Of a stretch of 64,000 nt of DNA, positions 4,550 to 50,747 are shown piece after piece (within the stretch, counting starts at the first letter, position 1; the number at the start of each line of letters is the position of its first letter). The notes under the pieces were generated by a model. That model was not told the origin of the DNA, did no database searches, and saw nothing but the letters and a program-made list of their open reading frames with translations. Source of the stretch: Escherichia phage FEC14; sequence record MG383452, one strand, 5' to 3'. The translations under genes and the position numbers were made by a program.

Positions 4550-4652
4550 GGTGTAGTTCCTTCATTTCAGAGTCAGTGTTGTGCTGCTTATGGAATGAAG
4601 TATACGGGGTTTATTGAAGAAGTAAACCCCGTTTATTGAATAAATTTTAAAT

Positions 4653-4889
4653 TTATTTGAAGCGATCAGGAAGAGTGTCGTGAACCTCAGCGCTCAGCAC
4701 CAGGAACTTGCCGTCTTTAGTAGGGAAGCAGTAGTCTTTCTTGATGTGGCGCATGTGTTCAGCCGTAGCCGCTACACAGTCGTTAGTCACGTCGGTCTTC
4801 TCACCTACCCACATACTGGTTTTGGTATTCAATGTACCTTGGAAGATAGTGCCCGTCAACGGGCTTGCTCCAATCTTTTTGATTCTCAT
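4653..4889 (-). CDS. hypothetical protein
   Basis: Start moved to the internal ATG with GGGAGA RBS; ATGA overlap with the stop of the upstream gene. Confidence 0.45.
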   Translation of the reverse strand: MRIKKIGASPLTGTIFQGTLNTKTSMWVGEKTDVTNDCVAATAEHMRHIKKDYCFPTKDGKFLVLSAEVHDTLPDRFK

Positions 4890-5260
4890 AATTTCTCCCA
4901 AGTCCATGTTTGCGCCTTGGCTTTTCCGACTACTGGAACGTTACGGTGCATGTTTCTGAAGCTGCCTGTCTGATAAAAACAGATCCTGATGCGTTCATTT
5001 TCGGTATGCTGTGCCCAAACATGATGACCGTCTGGGTATGGGTCGTGACCAGCGCTACCTCCTTGTAGAGCTGTTTTGGTAACGACATAATGCCCTTGCA
5101 TGTAACCGAAGAATCCCTCAGGGGTGATATAACCAGAGTCCGTTTGCCAATCTCCCTTGCAATTAGAATACAAGAAATGCTTAGGCACCTGAGTTTCAAT
5201 GGTCATTTCTTCTGTGAGAACGAACACATCGCCGACTTGAAGCAGTGGTAAATTGCTCAT
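4886..5260 (-). CDS. hypothetical protein
   Basis: 124-aa ORF, ATG start. Confidence 0.5.
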   Translation of the reverse strand: MSNLPLLQVGDVFVLTEEMTIETQVPKHFLYSNCKGDWQTDSGYITPEGFFGYMQGHYVVTKTALQGGSAGHDPYPDGHHVWAQHTENERIRICFYQTGSFRNMHRNVPVVGKAKAQTWTWEKL

Positions 5261-5271
5261 ATATTAATCTC

Positions 5272-5718
5272 TCACATGTTGCTGATTTTAAATAAAGTCG
5301 GAACATAGCACGGGTGTTGTTCACAGGACATGAAGGTATCAAAACGGGAACCTTTAACCAAGCCAGGCAGTTCGCCTTTCTTCAGGAGATCACGCACTAA
5401 CTCTTGCGTGTCATACCAACTTTTTGCTGGATTGGATTGGGCTTCTGAAACTCGGATTTTCAACTCCCCAGTCGAATAATATTTACCGCTTTCCTTCATA
5501 TAATAAAGGTTGACGGTCAGATATTGAGGAGAATCTATTTCTTCCCAACCGTTATCAACCAAGTCTTGGCGGTCATTGTCGTGACTTTGATAATCAATGT
5601 CACCGCTGGCCAATTTATAGCATTTGAAAATGCGAAAACCTTCGATAGGTGTATCGATGTCGCTACGAAAAAACTGGGAACGTCCTGGACTAATAAAGAT
5701 ATAATTTTGTTTAGACAT
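5272..5718 (-). CDS. hypothetical protein
   Basis: 148-aa ORF, ATG start. Confidence 0.5.
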   Translation of the reverse strand: MSKQNYIFISPGRSQFFRSDIDTPIEGFRIFKCYKLASGDIDYQSHDNDRQDLVDNGWEEIDSPQYLTVNLYYMKESGKYYSTGELKIRVSEAQSNPAKSWYDTQELVRDLLKKGELPGLVKGSRFDTFMSCEQHPCYVPTLFKISNM

Positions 5719-5793
5719 GATGTAGTTCTCTCTTCAAAGTGTTATGTTGTGACAGTTGGGTAATGATGGTTCATTACCCATTTATTGAAAACA

Positions 5794-6108
5794 TTAACAA
5801 TTATCTTTAGACTCGTCTTCACAATTTGGGTGATAAAACGTTCCCAGTTTAGTATGGATGACGTCCATGTGAGCATTGATTCTATCGATGAAATCGTCCT
5901 GCTCTCCTTGTATGTTAAGGATAGCACCAACAAGACCTGGATTGTGTGTTGATTTTTCTTCAGAATCAGATTCGGGAAATTCACCATCTAATTGTCGACG
6001 AATATTGATCACATTAGTGAGGATGTCAAAAAGACGTTCTTTTTGGGTGCGGGAATTAATGAGGATTTGTGACACGGATTGTTCAGAGGTAATATTTCGG
6101 GTTGTCAT
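5794..6108 (-). CDS. hypothetical protein
   Basis: 104-aa ORF, ATG with AGGAG RBS. Confidence 0.5.
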   Translation of the reverse strand: MTTRNITSEQSVSQILINSRTQKERLFDILTNVINIRRQLDGEFPESDSEEKSTHNPGLVGAILNIQGEQDDFIDRINAHMDVIHTKLGTFYHPNCEDESKDNC

Positions 6109-6195
6109 GACTGATACTCCTGTTGTAAGAAAGTTATATCGTACAACAGGAATTGTTATTGAACTATTCGCGTATTAAATCGTTACGATAAACAA

Positions 6196-6432
6196 TCACG
6201 TATTTTGAGAAACATATTTCAGATATGCGTATTTGTAACCTTCCTCGGTGAGTACACACAGATGTGTATCTCGACCTTTTGGTACGTTTTTAACATCAAC
6301 TCGTTTACAAAACCCCAGGGAGGCCAATTCGGCTTCTCCAGATTTAGCAGGTATTTCCCCAGCTTCACGAGGTCCAAACCAGAAAAGAACGAATAGAGTA
6401 TCGACTGCACCGCCAGATAATTGATGAGACAT
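6196..6432 (-). CDS. hypothetical protein
   Basis: Track ORF 6196..6516 trimmed to the internal ATG preceded by AAGGAGGT; the longer version would run through the terminator hairpin. Confidence 0.45.
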   Translation of the reverse strand: MSHQLSGGAVDTLFVLFWFGPREAGEIPAKSGEAELASLGFCKRVDVKNVPKGRDTHLCVLTEEGYKYAYLKYVSQNT

Positions 6433-6480
6433 TTTAACCTCCTTTGATAAATGAGGCTTTATTATCTTACATATCCCTAT

Positions 6481-6508
6481 AAAGAAAAACCCCGCCGAAG
6501 CGGGGTTT
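6481..6508 (-). terminator. rho-independent terminator downstream of the capsid gene
   Basis: GC hairpin accccgc-cgaa-gcggggt followed by a T-tract on the minus strand. The same hairpin sequence recurs near 12845 and 33080. Confidence 0.6.
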
Positions 6509-6526
6509 GTTATCAAAACCTGTCGC

Positions 6527-7849
6527 TTAGAACAGAGATTTGATCAGACCTTTGCGGAAATACGGGTTGCTGTCTTGAGCAATACCGTCAGCAGTCACGT
6601 AAACCTGCGGGTCTTGGTTAGCCGGAATCTGTACGAACGGGTTAGCACAGATGCCGTAACGGGTTTTGAACGCCATACGCGGAGCGAAGGTGGTTTCACC
6701 CTGGGTGCGGTACATTTCCAGCGGCACATACGGTGCGAAGAAGATACCGGCATCCAGCGCAGTTGCGCCTTTGTATGCCAGGGTGATATATTCTGCTACA
6801 GCATACGGGTCAACATAGACGCGCATGCCGTTGGACAGAACACCAGCGAAGGTCTGGCCAGTCGGGTCAACAGCCAGTTTAGTGTTTTCCTGCAGAACCG
6901 GAGCATAGTCCAGCATGCCAGACATCGCCAGAGCGGATGCCACGTTCGGAGAACACAGAACACGGTTGCCTTTACCACGACGGGTGTCAACACCGATACC
7001 GTTCGCTTCAACTTCCAGCATGAAAGTCAGGAACTTCCATTTTTCCAGCGCCCAACGACCGGAGATGTCCTGCGCGATATCAACAACACCGTTGGTGCCG
7101 AATTTTTTGAAGCGAACAGCACTGAAGTTCATGGTACGGATGAATTCACGGTTCATTTCCGCCTGAATTTCAGTTACCATCACGTCAGACAGGATATTAT
7201 CCACGTCTTCGCCGTGAATTGCCATCATGTCCTGACGCAGTTCATGGCTGTAATCAGCGTACAGGCCGCGAGACTTGGCAGTAACAGTCGCTTTCTGAAC
7301 AGTGATACCAACACGCGCCCAAGGGTTGGTGGTAGTACCCAGCAGTTCAGCATCACTTGACGGCATACCTTTACCGATAGTGGTCACGCCAGAGCCGGAA
7401 CCTTCGATCTCAGCCTGACTAAAGCCAGACGGGTCGCCAGCCTGTACAGTACCATCACCGGAATAGCCGGAATCGGCTTCCTGCATGAACAGTTCTTTAC
7501 GAGACTGTGCGGTGTTGGAACTGTCACCAACGCCCTGGCGAGCGCGCAGTGCAAAGATCTGACCGTCAGGACCAGACAGCGGCTGAACACCGAAGAAGTC
7601 CATCGCGATGTTGATCGGCGCCAGACGTTTTGCCATGTCGATCAGAACTGGCTGCCATTTACCGACAGTGCTGTTCACAGAACCAGGTGCGTCAGATTCG
7701 CCCAGGTTTTTTGCGTTCCATTCAGCCTGGTTCTGCATCAGACGGATGGTTACGTTTTCGGCAGACAGAGGTTGAATAGCTTCAGATTCTTTTTGGAGAA
7801 CTGGCAGCCACTGTTTGCGCATTTCTTCGGTTACAAGTTTCTTAGTCAT
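6527..7849 (-). CDS. major capsid protein (T4 gp23-like)
   Basis: 440-aa ORF immediately downstream of the scaffold/protease/portal block, in T4 gene order; GGAACGAG RBS; followed by a strong terminator. Confidence 0.7.
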   Translation of the reverse strand: MTKKLVTEEMRKQWLPVLQKESEAIQPLSAENVTIRLMQNQAEWNAKNLGESDAPGSVNSTVGKWQPVLIDMAKRLAPINIAMDFFGVQPLSGPDGQIFALRARQGVGDSSNTAQSRKELFMQEADSGYSGDGTVQAGDPSGFSQAEIEGSGSGVTTIGKGMPSSDAELLGTTTNPWARVGITVQKATVTAKSRGLYADYSHELRQDMMAIHGEDVDNILSDVMVTEIQAEMNREFIRTMNFSAVRFKKFGTNGVVDIAQDISGRWALEKWKFLTFMLEVEANGIGVDTRRGKGNRVLCSPNVASALAMSGMLDYAPVLQENTKLAVDPTGQTFAGVLSNGMRVYVDPYAVAEYITLAYKGATALDAGIFFAPYVPLEMYRTQGETTFAPRMAFKTRYGICANPFVQIPANQDPQVYVTADGIAQDSNPYFRKGLIKSLF

Positions 7850-7940
7850 GATGCTCGTTCCTTACATTGATATTCAGTTAAGTTGAAATTACTTAGTAGT
7901 TCAAAATCAAGCCCCCTTTCGAGGGCTGTGGCTGCTAAAA

Positions 7941-8780
7941 TTAGCCGTTCAGCAAAGCACTGATCTGGCGACGGACGGCTTCGTTGACTTCTTTGCCAAC
8001 TTCGTCTTTGTCGTCATCGTCATCGTCATCATCGTCGGCTTCACCTTCTTTCTTCGGTTTTTTACCTTCTTTGATGTCTTTTTCAGACTTGTCGCCATCC
8101 GGCTTGCCTTTTTCATTGTCTTTGCCGACTTTATCAGAGAAGTCATCTTTGCCTTCTACCAGGTTACGGAAGGTGCGCACACGGGATTCAAATTCAGACT
8201 CGGTCTGGAATTCAATACCTTCCAGCAGGTTGACAACAGTGTCTTTCTTGGTGTCAACCATGCCTTCACAAATGCGATCAATTACGTCGGTGCGCTGGCG
8301 TTTAGTCTCGCTTTCTTTGAGCTGAGCCAACTCTGTATTAGCCATATTGGCGCGTTGTTCTGCTTCAGCAAGGCGACTGGTGAGGGCGGCAATCTGACCG
8401 TCTGGGTCAGTAGCGAAACTCACACCTGCTTCTTTCAGCACGTTGGAGAAACCAGTGAGGAAGCGTTCAGCAGCTTCAGTTTTGATCTGAGCGTCAATAG
8501 CTGGGGCATTTTTGTTAGCCCATTCTTCAACCACCGCGTTGAGGAATGAGTCAACTTTCCCAGCCAATTGCAGAATGAAATTTTCTTTCAGGTCGGCGAT
8601 TTCTTTCTGGTGAGATTCTACCAAATTCAGGCGCTCGACGTTGCCAGCTGCTTCGGTTTCTTGGATAGCTTTCAGACGAGCCGCTTCAACTTTCGATTCC
8701 AGCAAATTGGATACTTTATCCAGGAAATCTGGGCTGATGCCGTTAACGCCTTCAAACAGATTTTGCAATTCAGGTTTCAT
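7941..8780 (-). CDS. prohead scaffold/core protein (T4 gp22-like)
   Basis: 279 aa, highly charged, with a poly-Asp tract (ADDDDDDDDKDE), located between protease and capsid genes. Confidence 0.6.
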   Translation of the reverse strand: MKPELQNLFEGVNGISPDFLDKVSNLLESKVEAARLKAIQETEAAGNVERLNLVESHQKEIADLKENFILQLAGKVDSFLNAVVEEWANKNAPAIDAQIKTEAAERFLTGFSNVLKEAGVSFATDPDGQIAALTSRLAEAEQRANMANTELAQLKESETKRQRTDVIDRICEGMVDTKKDTVVNLLEGIEFQTESEFESRVRTFRNLVEGKDDFSDKVGKDNEKGKPDGDKSEKDIKEGKKPKKEGEADDDDDDDDDKDEVGKEVNEAVRRQISALLNG

Positions 8781-8808
8781 GATAGTTTCCTTCTGAACGA
8801 TTTTTCAG

Positions 8809-8815
8809 TATTTAG
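8809..8815 (-). promoter_or_regulatory. late-promoter-like CTAAATA box
   Basis: Minus strand reads ctcaCTAAATActg about 30 nt upstream of the scaffold ATG. Confidence 0.4.
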
Positions 8816-8826
8816 TGAGCTGAAAT

Positions 8827-9495
8827 TCAGCCCAGATGATTCAATGCTGCATCAAGGCGGCGCAGGAAATCGTCTTCAACCTGGATATTGGTTTTCACCA
8901 ACTGGTCTACAACTTTCCCTTTAACATCACGAGGCATCCAAATACCCGAAGCCTCATCAAGCTGCCATTCAACAGATTCACTCACAGCCTTAACATAACA
9001 AACTTGTCCAGAAGGACGGTCGACTGCATCAACAGCGGTGAGCATAAAGCCAGGCTGAACGTCATCATAACCGTTTACTGACTTGGTCTCACCCAGGCCA
9101 CGTGTAGACACGGCCAGATTGAAGTCTGCTTCGGCCAATGCACGTATGATTTGGCCTTTTGGTGTATTTAAAATTCGCGCCCGACCGATGGCATTAGTGC
9201 CTTCCCAGCGAAGGGATTCGGTTTTGAGCGCTGCTTCCACCAGATTAGGGAAAGGATAGTCAGGATGTGTGACTTCACCGATTGCGCGACGATCTTGGAT
9301 ATACTCTTTGTCGTATGCTTCGACAGCAGGAATACCCACTTTCTGCAGATCATAGTTACGCCCGTTACGGTTGACTTGGTTACACATCACAAACGGACCT
9401 TCGATGAACATGGCCTTCCCACCAGTTGAGGTTGTGGCCTCACCGATTTGAAGATCCTTCCCTATCGCTGTGATCTCACGCAACAGTTTCATCAT
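8827..9495 (-). CDS. prohead protease (T4 gp21-like)
   Basis: 222 aa, position between portal/core and scaffold genes as in T4; AAGGAG RBS. Confidence 0.6.
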   Translation of the reverse strand: MMKLLREITAIGKDLQIGEATTSTGGKAMFIEGPFVMCNQVNRNGRNYDLQKVGIPAVEAYDKEYIQDRRAIGEVTHPDYPFPNLVEAALKTESLRWEGTNAIGRARILNTPKGQIIRALAEADFNLAVSTRGLGETKSVNGYDDVQPGFMLTAVDAVDRPSGQVCYVKAVSESVEWQLDEASGIWMPRDVKGKVVDQLVKTNIQVEDDFLRRLDAALNHLG

Positions 9496-9502
9496 AAACT
9501 CC

Positions 9503-9820
9503 TTACTTGTTCTTACTCAGTCCCATCATTTTGCGGAACTTCATAGCCTTTTTCTTGCGGCGCTCGATTTTACGTTGATAGCCCATTCCCATACGCTTTT
9601 TAGAGCGGAGAGCTTTGCGGTTGCCGATCTTGCGAACACGACGTTCGCTGGCGTCCATAACTTCACAACGTGAACCATCAGCCGACAATTTGAACCCAGG
9701 GGCACATTTCAAGCGGCGGCGGCGTTTACCACGAGCGTTCACTTTATCGATGACTCGCTGCTCGTCCATACGAGAGGCCAGGAAATCAGCGAACGTGGCG
9801 ATCTCTGTGATTTCCATCAT
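9503..9820 (-). CDS. small basic prohead core/internal protein (gp67/68-like position)
   Basis: 105 aa, Lys/Arg-rich, between portal and protease; AAGGAGA RBS. Confidence 0.4.
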   Translation of the reverse strand: MMEITEIATFADFLASRMDEQRVIDKVNARGKRRRRLKCAPGFKLSADGSRCEVMDASERRVRKIGNRKALRSKKRMGMGYQRKIERRKKKAMKFRKMMGLSKNK

Positions 9821-9828
9821 GCATCTCC

Positions 9829-9999
9829 TTACTGGCCGTTGTTGTTTGAATTCATATCAGCTGCGATAGAATCCAGAACATATGCTGTGCCTTGGTTTAA
9901 TAGTTCTTGACTACGTGCATCAAGTTCCATGTTGCATTCTGCAACAGCAGTTTCAGTGTCACCGTCAATTACTGCACGAACGATATCAATTGCGCTCAT
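9829..9999 (-). CDS. small hypothetical protein (about 56 aa, below ORF-track cutoff)
   Basis: My own translation of the minus strand gives an ATG ORF preceded by GGAGA; coordinates approximate. Confidence 0.3.
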   Translation of the reverse strand: MSAIDIVRAVIDGDTETAVAECNMELDARSQELLNQGTAYVLDSIAADMNSNNNGQ

Positions 10000-10040
10000 G
10001 ATTTTGATCTCCGAATTAATTTTCTATATTTAGTTGAACT

Positions 10041-11723
10041 TTAAATACTATCGTCTGTTGAACCGGAGAATGGGATAGTCTCAGGTTTAAACTTCAACGG
10101 ACTAACATCTGAACCGCTATAATTGCCAGTTTCATCTGCTTGAACCTTCGGATAGAGACCTTTCTTCTTCTCTTCCGCGATCTTCGTTTGTTGTTCTTTA
10201 ACTTCTTCATCAGACATACGCAATACATTTCTCATGACGTAGTCTATGGAGAAAATGGAACCAACAAATGGCTCAACAGTGTTCAATGAAGCCAGACGAT
10301 CATTCAAGATAGCGTTTTCTTGTTGTTCACGAATGTAACTATCGGATGTGAATTCAAACTTTATAAACGGTTTGATCTTCTCATTCCAATCCTTTTCATC
10401 CGTAACGCCTTTCAAAATTAACTGGCGGCGCAAGAATTCCATGAAGAAATGGGAGTAACGGCGTCGTAACCCAGCACAGAACTTGCTGAAGCGCAGCTCT
10501 TCCTGTGTAATCTCCGCAAGGTTAGAACCCCCAATGTTAATAGATCCTTCCTCTTGGAGGCGGCTCTTAGGGATCATTAGAGCATCATAGAGTTTTTCAC
10601 GGAAATAGTTCACGTGATCCATTTCGCCCAATTGATTCCCACCCCCAACAGTCGCAATCTCTGTAGCATTCTGACCTTCGCGGCGCGGCAACCAATAATC
10701 CTCTGCAATACCCATAAGATGGGCATTACCTGTTATCTTACCAGTGGTGCGGTCATATGCGTTGCGGTTTTTGAATTTACCCATCATCATGGTCATGTAT
10801 TCTTCAGCAGATTTCTTACCGAGAGTACCGACGTCAAGATAGAATGCGCGTTTCTCAGGGGCGCGAGTGATGGCATAAATTACAGTCGCATCTTCAGTCG
10901 TAACCAGGTTGTTCAACGGACGGATAGCAGGATTTAAAAGGCCTGGGACAATACCATTGGCCAATGGCTCTTCACCACTATCGATGTAAACAATGCTTTC
11001 GTCATCGAATACGAGTTCTTGCTGTGAAGGCTGGAAGTTCTGGGAAGTACCAGATTGGCCAGTGAATTGGTTTCGATTATAATTCGGGTTGTAATAATAC
11101 TTCAATGTTACAGATTCTATTGCTTCAATACCGCCTTCACGCATCGCCTTCTCAACGATATAGACAGGACGAATGCAACGAGAATCAAGCATAACCAATT
11201 TCTTGATCCCGCCTTTTTTATTCGTGGGATCAACGATGACATGATATGCTTGTCGACCGTCAACATACCATTTCCGGATCTTCTGATATGCTGTATTGTC
11301 AAAGTCCATCAAGTGCATAACTTCTTTGAAGCATTCGGTGATAGATTCTTTAACAGTATCAGATATCCCTTCAACTTTGTCAAGGTTTACTGTCACTGGA
11401 GTTTCATCTTCCTCACAGGTGACAACGTCATTAACAATGATGTCCACAGCTTTGCGGATTTCTGGCTGCTGGGCCATGGACTGATATTCTTCCACAACTG
11501 TTTTAACGCTGAGAAGTTCACTCTCAACGCCAACATAGTTGTAGGTGTTTGCACCGCCCTGAAGGATTATAGAACCGTCTTGAGCATCGTCCAGAGCAAC
11601 AACTGTCGCCTTGGTGAGCAACAATTCATCTTGTTTTTGGGCTAACTTATCGGTGTCGACTTTGGCATTGACTAAACCGCCGCCGCCAAACAAACCGAAG
11701 AACCCTGTGCCGTATCCAGCCAT
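10041..11723 (-). CDS. portal protein (T4 gp20-like)
   Basis: 560-aa ORF between tail tube and prohead genes in T4 order; GAGGA RBS. Confidence 0.7.
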   Translation of the reverse strand: MAGYGTGFFGLFGGGGLVNAKVDTDKLAQKQDELLLTKATVVALDDAQDGSIILQGGANTYNYVGVESELLSVKTVVEEYQSMAQQPEIRKAVDIIVNDVVTCEEDETPVTVNLDKVEGISDTVKESITECFKEVMHLMDFDNTAYQKIRKWYVDGRQAYHVIVDPTNKKGGIKKLVMLDSRCIRPVYIVEKAMREGGIEAIESVTLKYYYNPNYNRNQFTGQSGTSQNFQPSQQELVFDDESIVYIDSGEEPLANGIVPGLLNPAIRPLNNLVTTEDATVIYAITRAPEKRAFYLDVGTLGKKSAEEYMTMMMGKFKNRNAYDRTTGKITGNAHLMGIAEDYWLPRREGQNATEIATVGGGNQLGEMDHVNYFREKLYDALMIPKSRLQEEGSINIGGSNLAEITQEELRFSKFCAGLRRRYSHFFMEFLRRQLILKGVTDEKDWNEKIKPFIKFEFTSDSYIREQQENAILNDRLASLNTVEPFVGSIFSIDYVMRNVLRMSDEEVKEQQTKIAEEKKKGLYPKVQADETGNYSGSDVSPLKFKPETIPFSGSTDDSI

Positions 11724-11745
11724 GATCTAAGTCCTCAACATTTTC

Positions 11746-11770
11746 TTGTAATTAGTGAGGGGGAATAACA
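11746..11770 (-). other. intergenic GC hairpin between tail tube and portal genes
   Basis: Inverted repeat gggggaat-gtta-ttccccc; possible attenuator or RNA-stability element. Confidence 0.35.
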
Positions 11771-40618: not shown

Positions 40619-40728
40619 GTAGTTTTTACCTATTAATAAATCACGCTCCTATTTTGTTGGCCTTTAATTCAATAACACTTGTACGAATATAATAGTTTGG
40701 ACAAACAACCGTTATCAAGGAACCTCTC

Positions 40729-41505: not shown

Positions 41506-43775
41506 CTCAAAGGGGAGAGGACTTTTCAAATTAGCTGGGCTGCGGTAAAGTATTAAACATGAGGGAAATAACACAGTGGGAGTCGGGTTTGCAGCCCAAA
41601 ACCAGTTAACCCCTAGTCTCAGGGGCTTGTGTGAATAGAGGCGTAATAGCCACCTCGCTGGTGTCAGTGGACGCACTTGACCGTCGGAGAACGAAACTCC
41701 CTGTTGTAGCGTGATTAGCTCAGAAAAACGAGAGCACCCCGTTGGCAAGTCGACACCAACATATAAGGGGAGGTCGGGGGCGCTAATCTCCATCACGCCG
41801 ACAACATTATGAATCTTCATAGAGGGTTCATAATGTTGCGTCAAAGGGCAACAAGAGGATTCCTGTTGGTTGAATTAACTTGATTCATAGTTCCTGCTGA
41901 TCTTCCCGGATTCAGAAGAACACCGACAGGACGAGGCCGGATGCGTAAGTTCCGGCAAATCGATGGTGAGGTGGTGAGGTGGTGCATTGGTGACACGGGG
42001 TAGCGCTCAGAAGTTTGGTTCGATTCCGCACCCTCTCCAACAAAAATAAAAGGTTTTATCAATAACGGGTTACAAAGTATAGTTAACTCACTGAACGGCA
42101 AGCTGTTTGAGTCCTGGCCACTCATAGCGATGTGAGACCAAGACAGGTAGGTTTAGGACTCAAACAGGTTTTCGTTCTCGTTGCTTGCGACTTTGCGGGT
42201 TTTTAGAAACTGACCACAAAGATAAATGCAAACGATAACACGTTCCTGGCAGTAGCTTAACAGCCATACACCAGTGAGGTCTTCCGATTCCTCATCACCA
42301 AATTCGGCGCACTAAAATAGACGGGAGGGTGTGATTAATAATCTCCCGTCGACAATGAGCGGAGCGTGTACTTAATAGGTCGATGGGAGCAGACTACTTC
42401 TGAGAAATCAGGAGCGTACATGAGAAGGTTCGAGTCCTTCCTCCAATCCCAACGCCGTTATATCTGACTGTCCAAAGGGGATAAGCTCCTGAGTAGGCAG
42501 AGGTGGGTTGCCTAAGTCAGATGGGATGTAAGGTCAGCGCTGGCCAAGCATTTGGGTTCGACTCCCTAAAACGGCTCCATATCTTTGAGGGCATTCCGCG
42601 TCAGACGCGAGACTGTATGGAGTTTCAGGAGAAAGGCAACTTAAATCCGAGGCAGTAATGCCCTATGAAATATCGGAGCCTGTTGTACACTGAGTGCCCT
42701 CAAAGATGTGTCTCACAGCGCATCAGTTTGCAGTTATGCAAGCTTCAATAAGTTAAAACGCGCCTCGGGCGTTATGGGATAAAGCCTTAAACAGTGGAAT
42801 CCCCAGGGCTAGCAATCCCTGTCAAAGAAGTAGCCGTGTGGGGGGGTTTGCCCCCACAACGCAAATCGAAGTTCTCTGGGTATATCTTTTAACCCTCAAG
42901 GTCTGTACACAGAAGTGGCCGTCCCATGAGTAAGTTAGGCGATATACAACATGTTGGGTCGAACCTGTTAAGCCCAGAGAACTTCGATTTGCGTACTTGA
43001 GAGAGCGTTGTATGAAATAGGGCAATGCCTTGCAGACCTCGACGCCTACACATTCTAGACACTGGTGGGCGCTGGCGAAGATCTCAATATAAGCTGGTCA
43101 TCAAGGGTAGCTCCCTGACTAGACGAACAATGAGAGGCCGAACTAAGGGGAAACCCGAGACAGGCGCAGTATTCTCGAGTTCGCAAAACAGTGATCATCT
43201 GACAAGTGTGATCACTCTTCGATAGAGACATTACATCGTGGCCATCAACCACATCCTCGCTCTAGTGATGAGTGGTGTTATGTTTCTGTCGGCCAGCCTC
43301 GTTTGGTCCGAGCGATAGAGGACAAGTATTCGGTGTGACGAAGACATTGAATGCGAGTTGTGACATTTGGTTGCAACTTTGATGGCTCTGGATTTCATAA
43401 ACCATGTCTATGGGTGACGCGGGATCTTTAGTACCAGAGCCATCAAAGTTGTGTCCAACCCGATCTTGCAAGCCCGTATCCCTGTATGGTCAAGACTTGC
43501 AAGTGGAAAGCCCTGGAAAAATAAACGCCTGTGGTGAGGCTACGGTGCAAGCCAAAGACCCACAGAAGCGCGTTGCCGTGAGGCGCACAAACAGGCATGC
43601 ATGAACTGATCATGTACAAACGGGATAAAGGGTTGAGAGACCTTGGTTGGTCACACAATAAATTATGGGGCGATAGTTTAAGGGACAGCTGTCCGGACAG
43701 CGAGTCCCCAGAGAGAACAGGCTGGCGGCCAAACCAGCAAGGAGAGGTGAAAATCCTCAGACCCCGCCAAATTTT

Positions 43776-43851
43776 GGCCCCGTAGCTCAGTGGTTAGAGC
43801 AGTCGACTCATAATCGATTGGTCGCTGGTTCAAGTCCAGCCAGGGTCACCA
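43776..43851 (+). tRNA. tRNA-Met (anticodon CAT)
   Basis: Folds by hand into a cloverleaf: acceptor ggccccg/cagggtc, D-arm gctc-agtggtt-agagc, anticodon loop ctCATaa, T-arm gctgg-ttcaagt-ccagc, 3' CCA encoded. Confidence 0.8.
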
Positions 43852-43858
43852 CTAAATA
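43852..43858 (+). promoter_or_regulatory. CTAAATA late-promoter-like box on the plus strand
   Basis: ctaaataaacc immediately 3' of the tRNA-Met CCA end, about 35 nt upstream of the small ORF ATG at 43889. Confidence 0.35.
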
Positions 43859-43888
43859 AACCAGTTGTTCAATAAACAATTGGTGAGT

Positions 43889-44089
43889 ATGATGAAAACG
43901 TTCGGTGATTTTCTTACTGAGTGGGATGGTCTCGCTACCGACAACAAAGAGATTGTTGAGTTTGTTGAAAAGCGAGGCGATAAGTGGGTTGTCCTTGACC
44001 ACACCAAGACTAAAGTTCTTGGGACACATGACACCAAAGCTGACGCGGACGCCCAATTAAGGGCGATCGAAGCGAATAAACATAGTTGA
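43889..44089 (+). CDS. small hypothetical protein
   Basis: ATGATG start with GGTGAG upstream; lies between two tRNA genes. Confidence 0.4.
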   Translation: MMKTFGDFLTEWDGLATDNKEIVEFVEKRGDKWVVLDHTKTKVLGTHDTKADADAQLRAIEANKHS

Positions 44090-44102
44090 AGGGTTCTATA
44101 TT

Positions 44103-44237
44103 ATGAAGAATATTTGGGTGGTAATTTCCAACAGAATTCGCGCTAGTTGGGAAGGTCGGATGGTGAGCATCAAGAACGGGTCTCATCCAAAAACTTACGA
44201 TCGTTATGATCCTGCCCTGGGTCTTCATGCAGAATAA
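44103..44237 (+). CDS. small hypothetical protein (about 44 aa)
   Basis: Short ATG ORF from my own reading of the plus strand; below ORF-track cutoff. Confidence 0.2.
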   Translation: MKNIWVVISNRIRASWEGRMVSIKNGSHPKTYDRYDPALGLHAE

Positions 44238-44263
44238 AGAGTGTTTACGAAAGTAAGAATAGA

Positions 44264-44339
44264 GACGATGTAGTTCAGTCGGTAGAACGGCGGTCTGTTA
44301 AATCGTATGTCGCAGGTTCAAGTCCTGCCATCGTCGCCA
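44264..44339 (+). tRNA. tRNA-Asn (anticodon GTT)
   Basis: Acceptor gacgatg/catcgtc pairs perfectly; D-arm gttc-agtcggta-gaac; anticodon loop ctGTTaa; T-arm gcagg-ttcaagt-cctgc; CCA encoded. Confidence 0.8.
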
Positions 44340-45006
44340 GGATTATGTCGGGCCTTGCAGGATGGAATAGAGATCCTGTTTTGATGTCCAGGGGAGTCTA
44401 GTATTCAAAGTGAACATATGATAGCTTTGAAGAAACACAAACTAAAGATTGGGGTTTGAATCCCCCGCCCGACGACAAACAATGGGTGTGAAACGAAAGC
44501 AAGTAAGCACGAAGTACGCGAACGACAAGTTCTCTCGAGCGACGTCTAATAGCCGAACGGAATCTGAACCCGACGAAAGTAACGCCCACCAAATTCAGAG
44601 TGTAGAGGCTACAGTAGTGCGCACCTCACGGAAAGCTACACCGGACACTCTGATACAAATCTATCACTGCGTGGATTAGCTGAGGAAGGATGGCCGATGT
44701 CCTCAAGCGTGGCCCAGCACGTGGTGGTAGACCAAACACAGTAAGCGTTGCAGCCAGCTGTGTATAAAATGGGGTGACTCCACATCGAAAACGATGCCCC
44801 AACTTCCAGAAATGGTCGGGCGCGAAGCCTGTAAAGTTCCAGGAGATCGAACCAGAAGGCACTGGTGCCAGTTAACCAATCGGCGCTGATAAGCGCGGGG
44901 AGTTGGGCTACGGCAGATCAAATGCACAATCGGGTGTGAAGCCCGTCCTAATTTCGCGGGAGCCATAGGGGTTGGCCAGTAGCTGACTGCTCTCCCGCTC
45001 CAAATT

Positions 45007-45095
45007 GGAAGGTTGCCCGAGAGGTTTAAGGGACTCGACTGCTAATCGAGTGGGGCTTTTAGCCCCCGAAGGTTCGAATCCTTCACCTTCCGCCA
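45007..45095 (+). tRNA. tRNA-Ser (anticodon GCT), long variable arm
   Basis: Acceptor ggaaggt/accttcc; anticodon stem ctcga/tcgag with loop ctGCTaa; 17-nt variable arm tggggcttttagccccc; T-arm gaagg-ttcgaat-ccttc; CCA encoded. Confidence 0.8.
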
Positions 45096-45098
45096 AAT

Positions 45099-45184
45099 TG
45101 CTTCATAGCTCGAGTGGTAGAGCGCAGGAAAGTTTCGAGAGAACAAGGTGCCTGAGGTCACTGGTTCGAATCCAGTTGAAGCAA
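45099..45184 (+). ncRNA. tRNA-like element with non-canonical anticodon region
   Basis: Acceptor tgcttca/tgaagca (7/7 pairs), canonical D-arm and T-arm actgg-ttcgaat-ccagt, but the 35 nt between them do not fold into a standard anticodon arm by hand. Confidence 0.3.
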
Positions 45185-45479
45185 TCAGAATAATGAGTGT
45201 GACTTCCTGAAGATGAAGAAGGTGTGCATGCCGACTTCATAACAATCTGGGGTTAAGGAAGTTAAGAAAGTCGCAGGATATGCAAGTGAAATGCAAATAG
45301 CTTTCAACGTCCTGACGATTTCGGGTTCGATTCCCGACGCACTCTCCCAAACGCCTAATACTAGAAATTGCTGTGAGTAGTCTTTCCATCCCCACGATGG
45401 TTTAACCATAGCCCGATCAGGAAGATCGGGCTTCTTTTTGTCTATAATAAATAGATCTGGCTTGTAAAGGAGGTCTATT

Positions 45480-45713
45480 ATGGCAACTGCTAAGATCACA
45501 CCAAACGCAAGTACATGGACGCAAGTCTCAGACGGCACATCTTTGAAAACTCTTCAAGTGACTCACGGTTCTGTGTATCTGTGTGATAGCCCCAGCGCTC
45601 CAACGGGTAATAACGCGCATATCATATATCAAGGAAATATGGTCGTTTTAACCCCGCCGACGGTGGGATGGGTTAAGGCAATTAATTCTGATGCGACAGT
45701 TATCGTTTCTTAA
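45480..45713 (+). CDS. hypothetical protein
   Basis: 77-aa ORF, AAGGAGG RBS. Confidence 0.5.
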   Translation: MATAKITPNASTWTQVSDGTSLKTLQVTHGSVYLCDSPSAPTGNNAHIIYQGNMVVLTPPTVGWVKAINSDATVIVS

Positions 45714-45722
45714 GGAGGGAGT

Positions 45723-46241
45723 ATGGCTATTTTGACATCTCCCTATTTGGGGAATATGCTTCAGACCCACCGCATTAAAACAGAAGTCAGATTTTCTGGA
45801 TTGTCACAACTGCTAACTTCTGGGGCAACTGGAATAGATTTGTTAACTGTGTTGGATGGAAAGACACCAAACCTTTCTTCTCCTACTGGTTTGGCTCCGT
45901 TCTTTAAATTATCAGATCACAAATTTCATGCGTTTCCCTATGATTCTATTCTTCCTGTGAAGGTTAATATTGTCGGATCATGGTCTGGGTCTACTTCTAA
46001 TAGAACCATGATATTAGATTTTGTGGGTTCTGTGGGGAACCAGTTATCAAGAAGTCGTGATGCTAGCGTACCGCCGCCGGACACTTTGTCTTTCATTACG
46101 TTCTTCAGTGTTGACAAGGATGGGAACCTGGCGACCAACGGGGCGCAAATGAAACTGTACTCTTATGGTGGTGACTTTACCATTACCGAGGTCGTGTTGA
46201 TCGCTGAGCAGGTTGTCCCACTCTATATGACTAGTATTTGA
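45723..46241 (+). CDS. hypothetical protein
   Basis: 172-aa ORF, AAGGAGGGAG RBS. Confidence 0.5.
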   Translation: MAILTSPYLGNMLQTHRIKTEVRFSGLSQLLTSGATGIDLLTVLDGKTPNLSSPTGLAPFFKLSDHKFHAFPYDSILPVKVNIVGSWSGSTSNRTMILDFVGSVGNQLSRSRDASVPPPDTLSFITFFSVDKDGNLATNGAQMKLYSYGGDFTITEVVLIAEQVVPLYMTSI

Positions 46242-46312
46242 TTTGTTCAATGAGGAAGAGGGGTTTAAAATTTAACCGTTTATAAACCCCTTCATTGATT
46301 TGAGGAAACAAC

Positions 46313-47014
46313 ATGCGTAATGTTACGATTTGGGATTACAACGATGTCGTTTGTGACCTGCCTCCATTTGCTCGCCTGTACACATACAAAGGGAACAAAC
46401 GTACTCTGAATGAGTTCTTGTATCCGGCATATATCTATCGGGACGGGCATCTTGCTCCGCGATCACTTGAAGAAACTGGTGTGTGCACTCCTTTTGATAT
46501 CAACAAGAAAGGGCAAGCGGTATTCATTGGTTATTCCAGCGAAGACGACATGGTAAATGGTCGACGCGGTCTGTATATGGTGTTCAATACATTTGAGCAA
46601 GCCGTGAATTGGTTATTCAAAAATGGTTATGATTTCTATGGTGAAGAGAGTTCTACTGCTCGCCGCCGTAAAGTAAAGAATGTTGATTTCTACGCAGAGC
46701 GCAAGAAATATCTGGATATCGCTCATCAATATGAGCAATCTAAGAAATCCGTTCTAATCAAACCATGCGTTACGGTCGGTGAAGAAGTGAGTGTCGTGGA
46801 CAATTCCTATTTGGATCAGGCAATTAAATCTTTGAAGCCAACTCCTCTGGCCAGTGGTGCTCCGGTTGTTAAACATGACAGTTCAATCCCGACACCGCCT
46901 ACTCCTCCGGCCAGTCGTGTTCTGAATGATCAGGGCGCTCCGGTAAAACAAAAGGTCGAGAAGCCGACTTTCATGGATAACATGATGAAGTTCCTTCGTC
47001 TGTTCAAGAAGTAA
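46313..47014 (+). CDS. hypothetical protein
   Basis: 233-aa ORF, GAGGAAA RBS. Confidence 0.5.
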   Translation: MRNVTIWDYNDVVCDLPPFARLYTYKGNKRTLNEFLYPAYIYRDGHLAPRSLEETGVCTPFDINKKGQAVFIGYSSEDDMVNGRRGLYMVFNTFEQAVNWLFKNGYDFYGEESSTARRRKVKNVDFYAERKKYLDIAHQYEQSKKSVLIKPCVTVGEEVSVVDNSYLDQAIKSLKPTPLASGAPVVKHDSSIPTPPTPPASRVLNDQGAPVKQKVEKPTFMDNMMKFLRLFKK

Positions 47015-47083
47015 TCCGAGATTCTCCTTTTCTATACTCCTGTAGATACGCTATGATAAGCCAATGCCTACAGGAGAAATAGA

Positions 47084-48277
47084 ATGAACAAAACCATCTT
47101 CGATACCCTTTCCCTCGACCGTAATCTGGTTCACTGGGAAGATTATCTCTACAAACACACCCCTTGCGAACTCATTGCCAATCCAGAAACCAATCAGCAG
47201 GTTTGGTTCAAACGTGAAGATTACTTCGCGCCTTTGTCATGCTATATGAATGGCAAGCAGGGGATCAATGGCAGCAAACTCCGTCAGGCCATCTGGCTCA
47301 TGATGGAGCATCTGAAAGCGGGAGGATCCCCAGATCTTATCCATGGTACTGTCGTTGGTAGTCCGCAGTCCCCTATGGCGACGGCAGTCTCACGGCATTT
47401 CGGCGGCAAGACAACCACTGTGCTGGGTGCCACTAAACCAACCACATGCATGAATCATGATATGGTTTCAATGTCAGCATGGTTTGGTAGTGAGTTCAAC
47501 TTTGTTGGATCTGGTTACAATAGCACCATTCAGCCGCGCTGTAAGAAACTCATTGAACAATTAAATCCAAAGGCGTATTATCTGGAATATGGCATTACAT
47601 TGGATCATACCGTTCATTCACCAGAACGCATTGCTGGATTCCATATGCTGGGCGGGGAGCAGGTTGCCAACATCCCTGACCATATTACCGATCTAATTAT
47701 CCCTGCTGGTTCTTGTAACTCATGTACAAGCATCCTGACCGGACTGGCAATGCATCCGAAACCAAATCTGAAGAATGTCTATCTGATCGGGATTGGACCA
47801 AACCGATTAGATTTCATTGAAAGTCGTTTGCGCATTATCGGTAAGCAAGCAAACCTCCCTCACATAACTGATTTCACTCGTCGCTATCACGACAACCCAG
47901 ACTATGTGTATGGTAAGAAGGATCTCCAGCATGCCTCTAAGAGCGTTTCGCTGGCTGGCCTCCTAAGTGGTATCAGGCCAAAGAACGAGCCGGATATCGT
48001 GCTTCCTCGTTTTGAGGTACACCATTGGGATCTTCATACCACTAATTGGGTTCGTTACAACGACCTCATGGATTACCAGTGGGGAGATATTGAGTTGCAT
48101 CCTCGTTATGAAGGGAAGGTGATGACATGGATACAGGAACACAAACCAGAATTGCTTAATGAGAACTCATTGTTTTGGATCGTGGGTAGCAAGCCATATC
48201 TGGAAGCGATGAAAGCTGCTTGTCCTGAATTATCAATACCTGAACATGTCCCTGTGAATGAGTTTGTCCCCAGCTAA
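47084..48277 (+). CDS. putative PLP-dependent enzyme (ACC-deaminase / D-cysteine-desulfhydrase-like fold)
   Basis: N-terminal WFKREDYFAPLSCYMNGKQGINGSKLRQ resembles, from memory, the conserved region of that family that carries the PLP-binding Lys. AGGAGA RBS. Confidence 0.45.
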   Translation: MNKTIFDTLSLDRNLVHWEDYLYKHTPCELIANPETNQQVWFKREDYFAPLSCYMNGKQGINGSKLRQAIWLMMEHLKAGGSPDLIHGTVVGSPQSPMATAVSRHFGGKTTTVLGATKPTTCMNHDMVSMSAWFGSEFNFVGSGYNSTIQPRCKKLIEQLNPKAYYLEYGITLDHTVHSPERIAGFHMLGGEQVANIPDHITDLIIPAGSCNSCTSILTGLAMHPKPNLKNVYLIGIGPNRLDFIESRLRIIGKQANLPHITDFTRRYHDNPDYVYGKKDLQHASKSVSLAGLLSGIRPKNEPDIVLPRFEVHHWDLHTTNWVRYNDLMDYQWGDIELHPRYEGKVMTWIQEHKPELLNENSLFWIVGSKPYLEAMKAACPELSIPEHVPVNEFVPS

Positions 48278-48283
48278 TCCATC

Positions 48284-48316
48284 CTAAATACCCCATACGA
48301 CCAGTGTGGGGTATCT
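48284..48316 (+). promoter_or_regulatory. late promoter CTAAATAcccc plus hairpin plus GGGGTATCT-ATG (plus-strand copy of the tailspike element)
   Basis: atcCTAAATAccccatacgaccagtgtggggtatctATG. Confidence 0.45.
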
Positions 48317-48766
48317 ATGAAAACCTTTCTAGAATTTTATCGCGAATCAACGTTACCTGATTTTACGAATATCGTTTTGTATCATGGGTCTAATGTTGAA
48401 TTCGATATCTTTGATTTTGAAAAATTTGGCCAGACTGACTCTGGTACGATGGGTGCTGGGTTTTACCTGACGGGGGATCCAGAAAAGGCACAGATCTACG
48501 CAGAAAATGCCGTGCGCTATCGTCAATCTGGTGAACCTATTGTCATGGCATTTCGTGTCAAGGCCAAGAAGACTCTTGTAATAGATTCCAACAATGTTTC
48601 GGTGTGGGAAAATAAAATGCGTGAGTTGGGGATAAAGCCTGGTAAGATACATGATAATGTGAAAGAACTTATCAACAAAGGGTTCGATTCCATAGCCTCT
48701 ATGAGTGCCAATAACGTTGAGGAAATGGTGGTGTTTAAGCCAGGGCTGGCGACCAGAGAAGCCTAA
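48317..48766 (+). CDS. hypothetical protein
   Basis: 149-aa ORF directly after the promoter-hairpin element. Confidence 0.5.
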   Translation: MKTFLEFYRESTLPDFTNIVLYHGSNVEFDIFDFEKFGQTDSGTMGAGFYLTGDPEKAQIYAENAVRYRQSGEPIVMAFRVKAKKTLVIDSNNVSVWENKMRELGIKPGKIHDNVKELINKGFDSIASMSANNVEEMVVFKPGLATREA

Positions 48767-48801
48767 ATAGTCCAAAGCAGTTTATTCAAGAGGACATTAC
48801 C

Positions 48802-49260
48802 ATGCCAATTTCGAAATTATTTGAAGCGGATTCCCCAGCAGACATGCCTATTTGGACTGGTGTTCAAGACGGGACTACGATTGAATTCTTTGAGCGCGGG
48901 GAAACAGGTGCTGAAGAGATTTATGCTTCCGTGCAAGGGACAGACGTCGTCCGCGCCGCCGTAGCTCTTGCTACATTTTTAGAGGACGCCCCGATTGACG
49001 GTATCCCGTTTGAAGCCCATGTGGACCCAGAAGACCCGACGTCTATCATCATTACAGTCCAGGGTGCTGAATATACATCTTACAGTATTGAGCACGATGA
49101 AGAAACAGGAGCGCTGTTTATAGCCACGGATCTTCAATTGGAAGATGACGAAATTGAATATCTGAAACAGAATGGTCGTCTCCCTGAATATTCTGATGAA
49201 GAATTGGATTCAGCGTTTGACAACGTAGACGATGATGACGATTTCTGGGACGGGAAATAA
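48802..49260 (+). CDS. highly acidic hypothetical protein
   Basis: 152 aa, very rich in Asp/Glu with a C-terminal DNVDDDDDFWDGK; AAGAGGA RBS. Confidence 0.5.
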   Translation: MPISKLFEADSPADMPIWTGVQDGTTIEFFERGETGAEEIYASVQGTDVVRAAVALATFLEDAPIDGIPFEAHVDPEDPTSIIITVQGAEYTSYSIEHDEETGALFIATDLQLEDDEIEYLKQNGRLPEYSDEELDSAFDNVDDDDDFWDGK

Positions 49261-49287
49261 ACAAGGGGGGCTATTGCCCCCTTGTTT
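49261..49287. terminator. bidirectional terminator (perfect palindromic hairpin)
   Basis: caagggggg-ctatt-gcccccttg between convergent genes. Confidence 0.6.
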
Positions 49288-49831
49288 ATGCTTTGACCTT
49301 TCTTGTTGGATATTGGTTAAAAATTTTGCCGAGTTTCGACACGTTGATGATCGTGTGTGTCTTCCAATATTCAATTCCCTCTGGTGTAGTCACTTCCAGA
49401 ATCGAATAATCCCAGATATGGGAACCCTTTAAGATTGCATCACTGTGCCCACCGATTTTATTTTCTAGTTTAATGATGAATGCTTCATATTGAAATGCAG
49501 CGTTACGACGAGCTTCATCAATAAATCGTTTTTGACGGTCTGGGTCGCGCTTAACAATTTCTGGTTTACCAGGCTGATATGTTGAAGAAACGAGTTGAAC
49601 CAATGAATGATACAATGTGTGTTTAGATTTCATGCTCACGTAATCTGGATGACCAAGTCTTATCCCTACGCTGGACGGCCATGGAGCACAAGCATTAATA
49701 TCCCAGCCGTGAGATTCTAAATCTTCCATGACTTTGTTAATAATATTCGTTGCCGACATGACTGCGGCGTCTTCAGCCTGGGACAACAGAGGCTCAACTG
49801 CGATACGGACAGGAGTTTTTGGCATATTCAT
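49286..49831 (-). CDS. hypothetical protein
   Basis: 181-aa ORF, ATG start. Confidence 0.5.
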   Translation of the reverse strand: MNMPKTPVRIAVEPLLSQAEDAAVMSATNIINKVMEDLESHGWDINACAPWPSSVGIRLGHPDYVSMKSKHTLYHSLVQLVSSTYQPGKPEIVKRDPDRQKRFIDEARRNAAFQYEAFIIKLENKIGGHSDAILKGSHIWDYSILEVTTPEGIEYWKTHTIINVSKLGKIFNQYPTRKVKA

Positions 49832-49881
49832 GATATAGTCCTTCAGTTTTCAAGGTAAGCCCCCGAAGGGGCTTTGTCATA

Positions 49882-50439
49882 TTAGAGGCGGGAATCCAAC
49901 CATGCGTTCTTTTCATTCTGCCATTCCCAAGCGGCCTGACCACCTGCCATGATAACTTCCAGAGAAGGAGTATTGTCATCCTCGCCGCCGTGAAGATCTG
50001 GATCAAATCCATCATCTTCCGGATCATCTTCACATTCGTTCTGATATGCGGAATATTCAATATAATGCGCTTCGGCTTCGCAATCCATGTCTCCCAGAGC
50101 AGTCTCAAGAGTCATTTTACCTTCGGCAATCAGCTCAGCCGTTGCGTCGTCCAGACCTGCGTCTTTCGCTTCAACAAAGAGTTCATGACGTTTCTGGAAG
50201 AGAAAGAATTGCATGGCGGCAGAACGTGAATCAAAGAATTCTTGACGAGGAGCGGTGATATCACGCCCATCAATTTTACTTACCATCACGACACGAGAAC
50301 CGTACTCAACCAGGAAGCGACCGCCTTTTACGGGGTTGCTGCCGTCAACTGTGCCCAAAGTGGTGATTACACGGCCTTCTTCGGTGCCGAACAATACAGT
50401 TTTGCCGGATTTGGATTGAGCGATAATTTCGATTGCCAT
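49882..50439 (-). CDS. hypothetical protein with acidic C-terminus
   Basis: 185 aa from the internal ATG with AAGGA RBS; the track ORF extends upstream to 50619. Confidence 0.45.
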   Translation of the reverse strand: MAIEIIAQSKSGKTVLFGTEEGRVITTLGTVDGSNPVKGGRFLVEYGSRVVMVSKIDGRDITAPRQEFFDSRSAAMQFFLFQKRHELFVEAKDAGLDDATAELIAEGKMTLETALGDMDCEAEAHYIEYSAYQNECEDDPEDDGFDPDLHGGEDDNTPSLEVIMAGGQAAWEWQNEKNAWLDSRL

Positions 50440-50534
50440 GATGTATTTCCTTCTCTTCAGATTGTTGTTTGTTCGTACTACAATTAGAAGTATACGCCAG
50501 TTATTGAAGAAGTAAACTTTATTCAATAAATATT

Positions 50535-50747
50535 TTAATAAATTTTGAATTCTGCTCCTTTGTACACTGCTTTCCCTCGTTCTATGAGGCCGTCGGGGAC
50601 AACCACCTTTGTGGGCCATCCGCCGTCCGGTGCTTTGACAGTCAGGCGTGTCTTATGATCACCCAGCTGAATCTGTTCGTAAATCCTTCCTCTCACTATC
50701 GTCGCCCCGCCTTGGGTAACGAGCAATCTCTTGTTTACCACTTTCAT
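50535..50747 (-). CDS. hypothetical protein
   Basis: 70-aa ORF. Confidence 0.4.
   Translation of the reverse strand: MKVVNKRLLVTQGGATIVRGRIYEQIQLGDHKTRLTVKAPDGGWPTKVVVPDGLIERGKAVYKGAEFKIY

Follow-up and report, generated by a model that had tools for sequence, protein, structure and literature searches.

Two related spacers between minus-strand genes

The window analysed here is a stretch of 64,000 nucleotides (nt) of DNA from Escherichia phage FEC14 (sequence record MG383452), and the elements in question are two look-alike intergenic spacers that it contains. Megablast placed the window in the genus Kuttervirus (ViI-like phages, Ackermannviridae). It is collinear with about the last 64 kb of Salmonella phage SFP10, to which a 2-kb segment is 99.4% identical and a 24-kb segment 96.7% identical. 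As described in an earlier note on this DNA, both spacers lie between minus-strand genes. The first (copy 1) is placed between those at 4653-4907 and 4085-4549 and the second (copy 2) between those at 50535-50747 and 49882-50439; the two loci are found in SFP10 at 98.2 kb and 144.7 kb. The gene downstream of copy 1 encodes 154 amino acids (aa) and belongs to the family phrog_6516, and the gene downstream of copy 2 encodes 185 aa and belongs to phrog_4823, both of which are listed with unknown function (PHROGs, Pfam).

The likeness of the two spacers is real. An exact 17-mer, TTATTGAAGAAGTAAAC, occurs in the window only at 4611-4627 and 50501-50517, and a motif search over the window allowing up to three mismatches returned four matches against 0.30 expected, a count that none of 100 shuffled sequences reached. 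Alignment of the complete spacers with MAFFT gave 79% column identity over 139 columns, and in the window blastn-short matched copy 1 to copy 2 at E = 3e-4. On the minus strand, both copies have CGTATACTTC in common, and both contain the palindrome TTTATT(G/C)AATAAA (4632-4644 and 50518-50530). The similarity goes beyond generic AT-rich sequence, for the 17-mer contains G and C and the same ordered parts recur in further copies. The length of about 55 bp given previously proved too short: the homology runs from an AT-rich tract through a -10 hexamer and sets in again with the ribosome-binding site and the start codon (CTGAA..GAAGGAAnTACAyCATG), so that each unit measures about 100 nt, and the boundary of copy 2, formerly put at 50500, is corrected to about 50487.

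Anatomy of the probable promoter cassette

On the minus strand, both units show the same order of parts: an AT-rich tract, GTTTAC, a 17-bp spacer made up of TTCTTCAATAA and six further nucleotides, TATACT, a leader, the sequence CTGAA..GAAGGAAnTACAyC and an ATG. A neutral consensus scanner called both copies as TTTACT-16-TATACT, and the pattern GTTTAC-17-TATACT has three perfect matches in the 64-kb window, namely copy 1, copy 2 and one inside a coding region. In both copies, the -10 TATACT agrees with TATAAT at five of six positions, and a -35 element stands upstream of it, read either as TTTACT at 16 bp (four of six positions of TTGACA) or as GTTTAC at 17 bp. The roughly 30 nt upstream of the -35 are nearly all A or T. 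The ATG follows 49 nt downstream of the -10 in both cases, it is preceded by the strong Shine-Dalgarno sequence GAAGGAA and the gene is co-oriented; both leaders are CA-rich, about 45 nt long and without significant structure (z scores of -0.3 to -0.5).

In copy 1, the AT-rich tract (4628-4655) occupies the position of an UP element and includes the palindrome TTTATTGAATAAA (4632-4644), an upstream TTCAATAA box (4633-4640) and the stop codon of the preceding gene (4653-4655). Most members of the family described below have the same TTTATTGAA(T/A)AAA directly upstream of the -35. The -35 GTTTAC, with TTTACT and a 16-bp spacer as alternative register, is at 4622-4627 and is invariant across genera; a second TTCAATAA box stands in the promoter spacer (4611-4618), 6 bp upstream of the -10 TATACT (4599-4604). 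The CA-rich leader (4547-4598; z = -0.54) carries the Shine-Dalgarno sequence GAAGGAA (4557-4563) and ends with the ATG (4547-4549) of gene 4085-4549. The hairpin that had been noticed in this copy is a perfect 10-bp inverted repeat, ACGGGGTTTA/TAAACCCCGT, at 4604-4632 (arms 4604-4613 and 4623-4632; -14 kcal/mol, z = -5.3), and it encloses the -35 and the box. It is present in the copy-1 orthologues of four genera, is missing from copy 2 and was not found in the corresponding element of Serratia phage 3M. The hairpin is specific to the copy-1 lineage and no feature of the family.

Copy 2 has an AT-rich tract (50518-50548) that contains the palindrome TTTATTCAATAAA (50518-50530) and overlaps the stop codon (50535-50537) of the upstream 70-aa gene. 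The -35 GTTTAC is at 50512-50517, the TTCAATAA box at 50501-50508, 6 bp upstream of the -10, and the -10 TATACT at 50489-50494. An unstructured leader (50437-50488; z = -0.33) holds the Shine-Dalgarno GAAGGAA (50447-50453) and the ATG (50437-50439) of gene 49882-50439. Together with TTATTGAA (minus-strand reading, 50522-50529), the box forms an inverted repeat around the -35, the arms of which pair in the RNA fold; copy 2 as a whole has no significant hairpin (z = -0.9).

These features indicate that the spacers are probably paralogous copies of a single promoter cassette of early sigma-70 type, conserved throughout the ViI-like phages and placed in front of small accessory genes. The shared regulatory function proposed in the earlier note is thereby well supported, by the promoter anatomy of both copies, by conservation across genera above that of the genes and by the further copies of the family. 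The suggestion of a middle promoter fits as far as the promoter is concerned and fails as to type, the architecture (GTTTAC, 17 bp, TATACT, AT-rich upstream tract) being that of early sigma-70 promoters; with the box at 6 bp from the -10 and a -35 element in place, copies 1 and 2 are not of the middle type. It is most likely that both are regulatory and act as early rather than middle promoters. From this anatomy we infer promoter activity, sigma-70 dependence and early timing: host sigma-70 RNA polymerase would bind the cassette elements much as it binds T4 early promoters, a new transcript would begin a few bases past TATACT, and efficient translation of the small accessory gene that follows would be made possible by the open leader. 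A gp55-type late promoter, with a TATAAATA- or CTAAATA-like -10 and no -35, was also considered and was rejected because CTAAATA is absent from both copies.

Cassette family and conservation

Genome-wide motif work was carried out on the complete annotated genome of SFP10 and on 100 kb of a distant relative, Serratia phage phiMAM1, while orthologous copies were drawn from Kuttervirus, Agtrevirus, Limestonevirus, Taipeivirus and unclassified Klebsiella phages. A third close copy was found at 63.5 kb of SFP10; it reads CTTTAC-ttcttcaataacccacg-TATAAT and has a leader resembling that of copy 1. About five looser members are present in the same genome (57.6, 31.9, 79.6, 39.9 and 51.2 kb). The same ordered parts recur at several loci of phiMAM1 (at least three copies in the 100 kb) and of Serratia phage 3M, which have little DNA similarity to the window.

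The arrangement of copies 1 and 2, with a -35, the TTCAATAA box, 5-10 bp and a -10, is referred to as class A. Among 13 aligned class A members, the -35 (G/C)TTTAC and the box show essentially no variation (TTGAATAA in one member), and the TAnnnT form of the -10 is retained. The TTC before the box and the 5-7 nt after it are shared by the close copies only, and the bases between box and -10 vary among class A members, as does the leader. An inverted repeat TTATTGAA-N13-15-TTCAATAA surrounds the -35 at window 50501-50529, at 57.6 kb of SFP10 and at 14.58, 82.17 and 83.13 kb of phiMAM1, a layout such as might be expected of an operator for a dimeric protein. In the SFP10 copies at 63.5, 51.2 and 31.9 kb, a GC hairpin stands directly upstream of the promoter.

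Across genera, copy 1 is 89-100% identical to the window, and the coding sequence upstream of it is 72-81% identical in the three genera other than Kuttervirus. For copy 2, the corresponding value is 93-100%, with 78-85% in the upstream and 75-80% in the downstream coding sequence. Taken together, the elements were put at 92-100% identity between four genera, compared with 72-85% for the coding sequence next to them. When IMG/VR viral contigs were scanned with the 16-mer TTTACTTCTTCAATAA, at least 120 loci were obtained, which is no complete census; 12 of the matches listed had a -10-like hexamer at the right distance, nine of them full Ackermannviridae-like cassettes and three chance-looking, and hence no evidence for the cassette outside Ackermannviridae was seen among the matches listed.

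The translation-initiation region of the cassette is shared more widely. The sequence (G)AAGGAACTACAyCATG is found on the minus strand of the window at 4547-4560, 5716-5729, 46981-46994 and 50437-50450 and on about 14 genes of SFP10, and it is borne by many small minus-strand genes. As the phage encodes a RegA-type translational repressor (SFP_0123), this sequence could be a RegA target.

Gene exchange at the cassette border

Many genomes match the copy-1 region only as far as the start codon. The first gene after copy 1 belongs to one of five unrelated families, phrog_6516 in the window and families 17538, 16902, 10263 and 5704 elsewhere, and in some genomes two of these five are found in tandem. 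In all genera examined apart from the Serratia and Klebsiella loci, the sequences converge again on a conserved spacer (window 4017-4084, minus strand) and the same next gene. This spacer contains a hairpin, shows 83-87% identity between genera and closes the variable slot after copy 1 on the right. Its minus-strand sequence is tttgttctaaacc...gggtatgttaaaatcataccc...agaggactataacATG.

Similar events are seen at copy 2. In phage pSal-SNUABM-02, the copy-2 cassette is followed by a different gene (phrog_25715). In Klebsiella phage phi1_146041, the downstream gene is of the same PHROG family as in the window, blastn similarity ends at the ATG and the cassette is 96% identical. Dickeya phage Ds25CZ (984-1130 of the stretch compared) has kept the copy-2 promoter; a terminator hairpin comes after it, and the gene annotated next is encoded on the other strand. 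The promoter therefore appears orphaned after gene loss.

All relatives have a nearly identical cassette, and it stops precisely at the start codon; on this account it may also serve as a homology patch: the unit of about 100 nt would support the exchange of accessory genes by recombination, as has been proposed for the cassettes of T4-like phages discussed below. Exchange may also have taken place between cassette copies, as suggested by the copy-1 leaders of Klebsiella phages, in which four variant bases are typical of the leader of the 63.5-kb copy of SFP10 (cataagcagTacGacacCAact).

The TTCAATAA box, putative class B promoters and the probable late motif

An unbiased k-mer count over the gene-oriented upstream regions of SFP10 yielded two dominant motifs, ACTAAATA(C) and TTCAATAA. 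The latter is enriched 20-fold in these regions, which hold 22 of its 41 SFP10 copies. Besides class A, a second architecture (class B) was recognized, in which a usable -35 is mostly absent and the TTCAATAA box lies exactly 12 bp upstream of a TAnnnT hexamer. A -10 placed exactly 12 bp after the box occurs at 8 of the 41 SFP10 sites (0.43 expected) and at 7 of the 24 sites in the 100 kb of phiMAM1 (0.12 expected). A further -10 hexamer at 12 bp after the box was looked for in the class A copies, and none was consistent among them.

Five class B sites were located on the plus strand of the window. One, TTCAATAA-N12-TATAAT at 54438-54463, stands directly after the DNA polymerase gene and has its -10 in a hairpin loop. 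Two are the plus-strand TTCTTCAATAAA elements with which an alignment of the two spacers had been proposed: TTCAATAA-N12-TATTAT at 59054-59079, in a terminator-like hairpin (59060-59095; 16 pairs and a T-run), and the same pattern at 62301-62326, again inside a hairpin. These elements are indeed related to the cassettes through the TTCAATAA box, though they differ from them in architecture. A fourth site, TTCAATAA-N12-TATAAT at 40668-40693, heads a plus-strand cluster that includes tRNA genes, and a fifth, TTCAATAA-N12-TATGAT at 43868-43893, comes directly after tRNA-Met. The tRNA-Met, tRNA-Asn and tRNA-Ser genes are clustered at 43776-45095. On the minus strand, a class B-like TTCAATAA-N12-TACGAT (6138-6163) is found upstream of a small gene.

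The stretches 54451-54470, 59060-59095 and 62309-62340 are terminator-like GC hairpins with TATAAT or TATTAT in the loop and TTCAATAA in front. Such apparent, compact overlap of a terminator with a promoter is seen again at many spacers of SFP10, among them ggcggTATAATtgccgcc and agaggcTATAATggcctct. At the class B hairpins, an upstream transcript could be terminated and a new one could start inside the 3' arm.

The other dominant motif, ACTAAATA(C), has all 10 of its SFP10 copies in gene-oriented upstream regions. In the window, (A)CTAAATA(C/T) lies 25-45 nt upstream of start codons, mostly those of structural genes, on the minus strand at 8809, 10027, 14810, 19060, 25576, 30798, 33033, 36430 and 40292 and on the plus strand at 48284 and 48763. 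The motif is probably the gp55 late promoter, and in some T4-like phages the late promoters are of a similar CTAAATA type.

Function of the cassettes and alternative explanations

Several observations weigh against a plain early sigma-70 promoter. The -35 has only four of the six positions of TTGACA and there is no TGn extended -10. The conserved TTCTTCAATAA in the spacer is not expected of such a promoter and suggests an extra factor or constraint. Copy 1 belongs to a cluster lying just downstream of the gene for the major capsid protein, an unusual location for an early promoter, and the stem-loop that defines the comparable cassettes of T4-like phages lies upstream of the promoter, whereas that of copy 1 overlaps the -35 and copy 2 has none. 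Two control spacers were also well conserved (76-93% identical across genera), and the excess conservation of the cassettes is therefore real but moderate, at the top of the range. The hypermodified thymidine of ViI-type DNA, which is the declared topic of one paper (PMC5889632), could bear on a promoter so rich in T, and no promoter-mapping study or transcriptome of a Kuttervirus was found in the literature.

A rival proposal, compatible with the early-promoter explanation and overlapping with it, treats the cassettes as factor-controlled promoters or operators, with TTCAATAA read by a putative phage protein. At class B sites, the box 12 bp upstream of the -10 would replace the -35 and activate transcription; as the box of copies 1 and 2 lies between -35 and -10, and has an inverted partner in copy 2, the same factor would shut off or modulate these promoters. 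The proposal draws on the enrichment of TTCAATAA upstream of SFP10 genes, on its exact 12-bp spacing to a good -10, above expectation in SFP10 and in the distant phiMAM1 alike, on the rarity of a usable -35 at class B sites and on the retention of the box in class A spacers while the neighbouring bases vary. The spacing is that of the T4 MotA box (12 +/- 1 bp; PMC2988021), and the inverted repeat with TTATTGAA around the -35 recurs at several independent loci. However, tblastn searches of SFP10, the window and phiMAM1 revealed no homologue of MotA or AsiA, an AT-rich box could work through DNA shape or through contacts with the C-terminal domain of the polymerase alpha subunit, and the upstream partner of the box in copy 1 is a direct or imperfect repeat. 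In addition, the T-rich TTTACTTCTTC may be conserved because it provides the U-tract of a terminator that directly precedes it, as is the case in the 63.5-kb copy, and this would be an alternative to binding of a phage factor. The binding of a protein to the TTCAATAA box, one of the functions suggested in the earlier note, is possible, and control of the cassettes by such a factor is put forward tentatively. It is rather unlikely, on present evidence, that TTCAATAA is the recognition site of an Ackermannviridae protein that redirects the host sigma-70 polymerase, activating class B promoters and turning class A promoters off. Because these phages have no MotA or AsiA homologue, such a protein would be an analogue of MotA/AsiA sigma appropriation that arose independently, and one motif would then drive the switch from early to middle transcription.

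It is improbable that the elements are mainly terminators or RNA-processing or stability sites of the upstream gene instead of promoters. The stable hairpin of copy 1 would suit such a role, as would the GC hairpins that abut the T-rich -35 in other family members and the wide overlap of terminator and promoter signals in the genome. Yet copy 2 is without a significant hairpin, the U-tract after the copy-1 hairpin is poor and a terminator scan did not call it, and what the copies have in common is the -35, the box, the -10 and the ribosome-binding site, with no stem. The processing site that had been proposed earlier likewise found no support, given the unstructured leaders and the lack of an Rfam match: with a permissive cutoff, the region 4000-5200 returned no more than two chance matches below threshold (a snoRNA and a miRNA). 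The remaining explanation, a chance resemblance of AT-rich spacers without shared function, is refuted. Both spacers are AT-rich and low-complexity sequence can align spuriously, but a 17-mer with G and C that occurs only twice, the failure of every shuffle to reach the observed count, the near-identity across genera and the further copies with the same ordered parts speak decisively against it. The early sigma-70 cassette accordingly remains the preferred explanation.

This analysis defines a conserved early-type promoter cassette that marks the borders of slots for accessory-gene exchange, and it links that cassette with a TTCAATAA box that occurs genome-wide and has a fixed 12-bp distance to the -10. 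The outcome is a concrete and testable promoter grammar. The phage family is widely used for biocontrol of Salmonella, E. coli O157, Klebsiella and Dickeya, and the cassettes are candidate strong, portable expression signals as well as natural insertion points for phage engineering.

Comparison with known systems

The founding genome papers on ViI-like phages gave few consensus-like early sites (AG3, PMC3121705) or none (CBA120, PMC3184105). For Shigella phage phiSboM-AG3, nine putative 'early promoters' were listed by likeness to TTGACA-N15-18-TATAAT (Anany 2011, PMC3121705, Additional file 2). One of these, Porf138 (TTttacttcttcaataactcacgTATAAT), is a member of the cassette family and another, Porf237, is orthologous to the window's class B site at 54438; loci matching copy 1 or copy 2 are missing from that list, and the cassette, the TTCAATAA box and its spacing went unrecognized there (PMC3121705). 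According to the CBA120 paper, informatics could not reveal the early promoters, and the late promoter likewise had not been identified (PMC3184105). The LIMEstone paper relied on similarity to T4 and arrived at 5 early, 5 middle and 33 late promoters, with no sequences in the text. The 2012 'Viunalikevirus' genus paper aside, no account of the repeated cassette, the TTCAATAA box or the spacing of that box was found in the literature. The abstract of that genus paper reportedly mentions conserved regulatory sequences, and part of the motif work may therefore be in print.

T4 middle promoters combine a MotA box centred at -30 with a sigma-70 -10 and work through sigma appropriation by MotA and AsiA; the box is placed 12 +/- 1 bp from the -10 (PMC2988021). 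Only the class B sites resemble them, having a box 12 bp upstream of the -10 in place of a -35; TTCAATAA itself is unrelated to the MotA box (a/t)(a/t)(a/t)TGCTTtA and contains no TGCTT. ViI-like phages were reported to have no homologues of the proteins that regulate early and middle transcription in T4 (Kutter et al., CBA120, PMC3184105). A Pfam scan of the 148 SFP10 proteins for MotA- or AsiA-like domains covered the 25 strongest families only, and tblastn with T4 MotA and AsiA was used instead; it matched about 1,150 T4-like records, and the best value in SFP10, the window and phiMAM1 was E = 0.59. As the box sequence is unrelated and MotA and AsiA are missing, the class B sites do not belong to the MotA class, with which they share the geometry alone.

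T4 early promoters are strong promoters with UP, -35, TGn and -10 elements (Hinton 2010, PMC2988021), and TTTACW...TAYWAT is the -35/-10 type of T4/PST early promoters (PMC4122927). The cassettes are like them in the presumed use of sigma-70, the AT-rich upstream tract, the TTTAC-type -35, the near-consensus -10, the spacing of about 17 bp and the small genes of unknown function downstream. They differ in having no TGn extended -10, TATACT instead of TATAAT and a conserved box in the spacer.

The closest parallel is provided by the promoter-early stem-loop (PeSL) cassettes of T4-like phages, in which an AT-rich tract, a TTTACW..TAYWAT promoter, a Shine-Dalgarno sequence and a start codon stand beside variable open reading frames (PMC4122927; Arbiol 2010; Comeau, Arbiol and Krisch 2014) and which were proposed to mediate exchange by homologous recombination (PMC4122927). 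As in PeSL, an AT-rich tract, a sigma-70-like promoter, a Shine-Dalgarno sequence and a start codon form one conserved unit that is present in several copies per genome, adjoins small variable open reading frames and coincides with the junctions of gene replacement. The phages studied here are, however, Ackermannviridae and not T4-like Straboviridae; the stem-loop overlaps the -35 (copy 1), is absent (copy 2) or lies upstream (63.5-kb copy); and the description of PeSL includes no counterpart of the conserved spacer sequence TTCTTCAATAA. Recombination between the present cassettes, such as excision or integration of mini-circles, is hinted at indirectly by the copy-1 leaders of Klebsiella phages with the variant bases of the 63.5-kb copy. 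The element itself is an ordinary one, most likely a phage promoter in a PeSL-like early cassette, and its weight lies in the family-wide pattern and in the factor that this pattern may imply.

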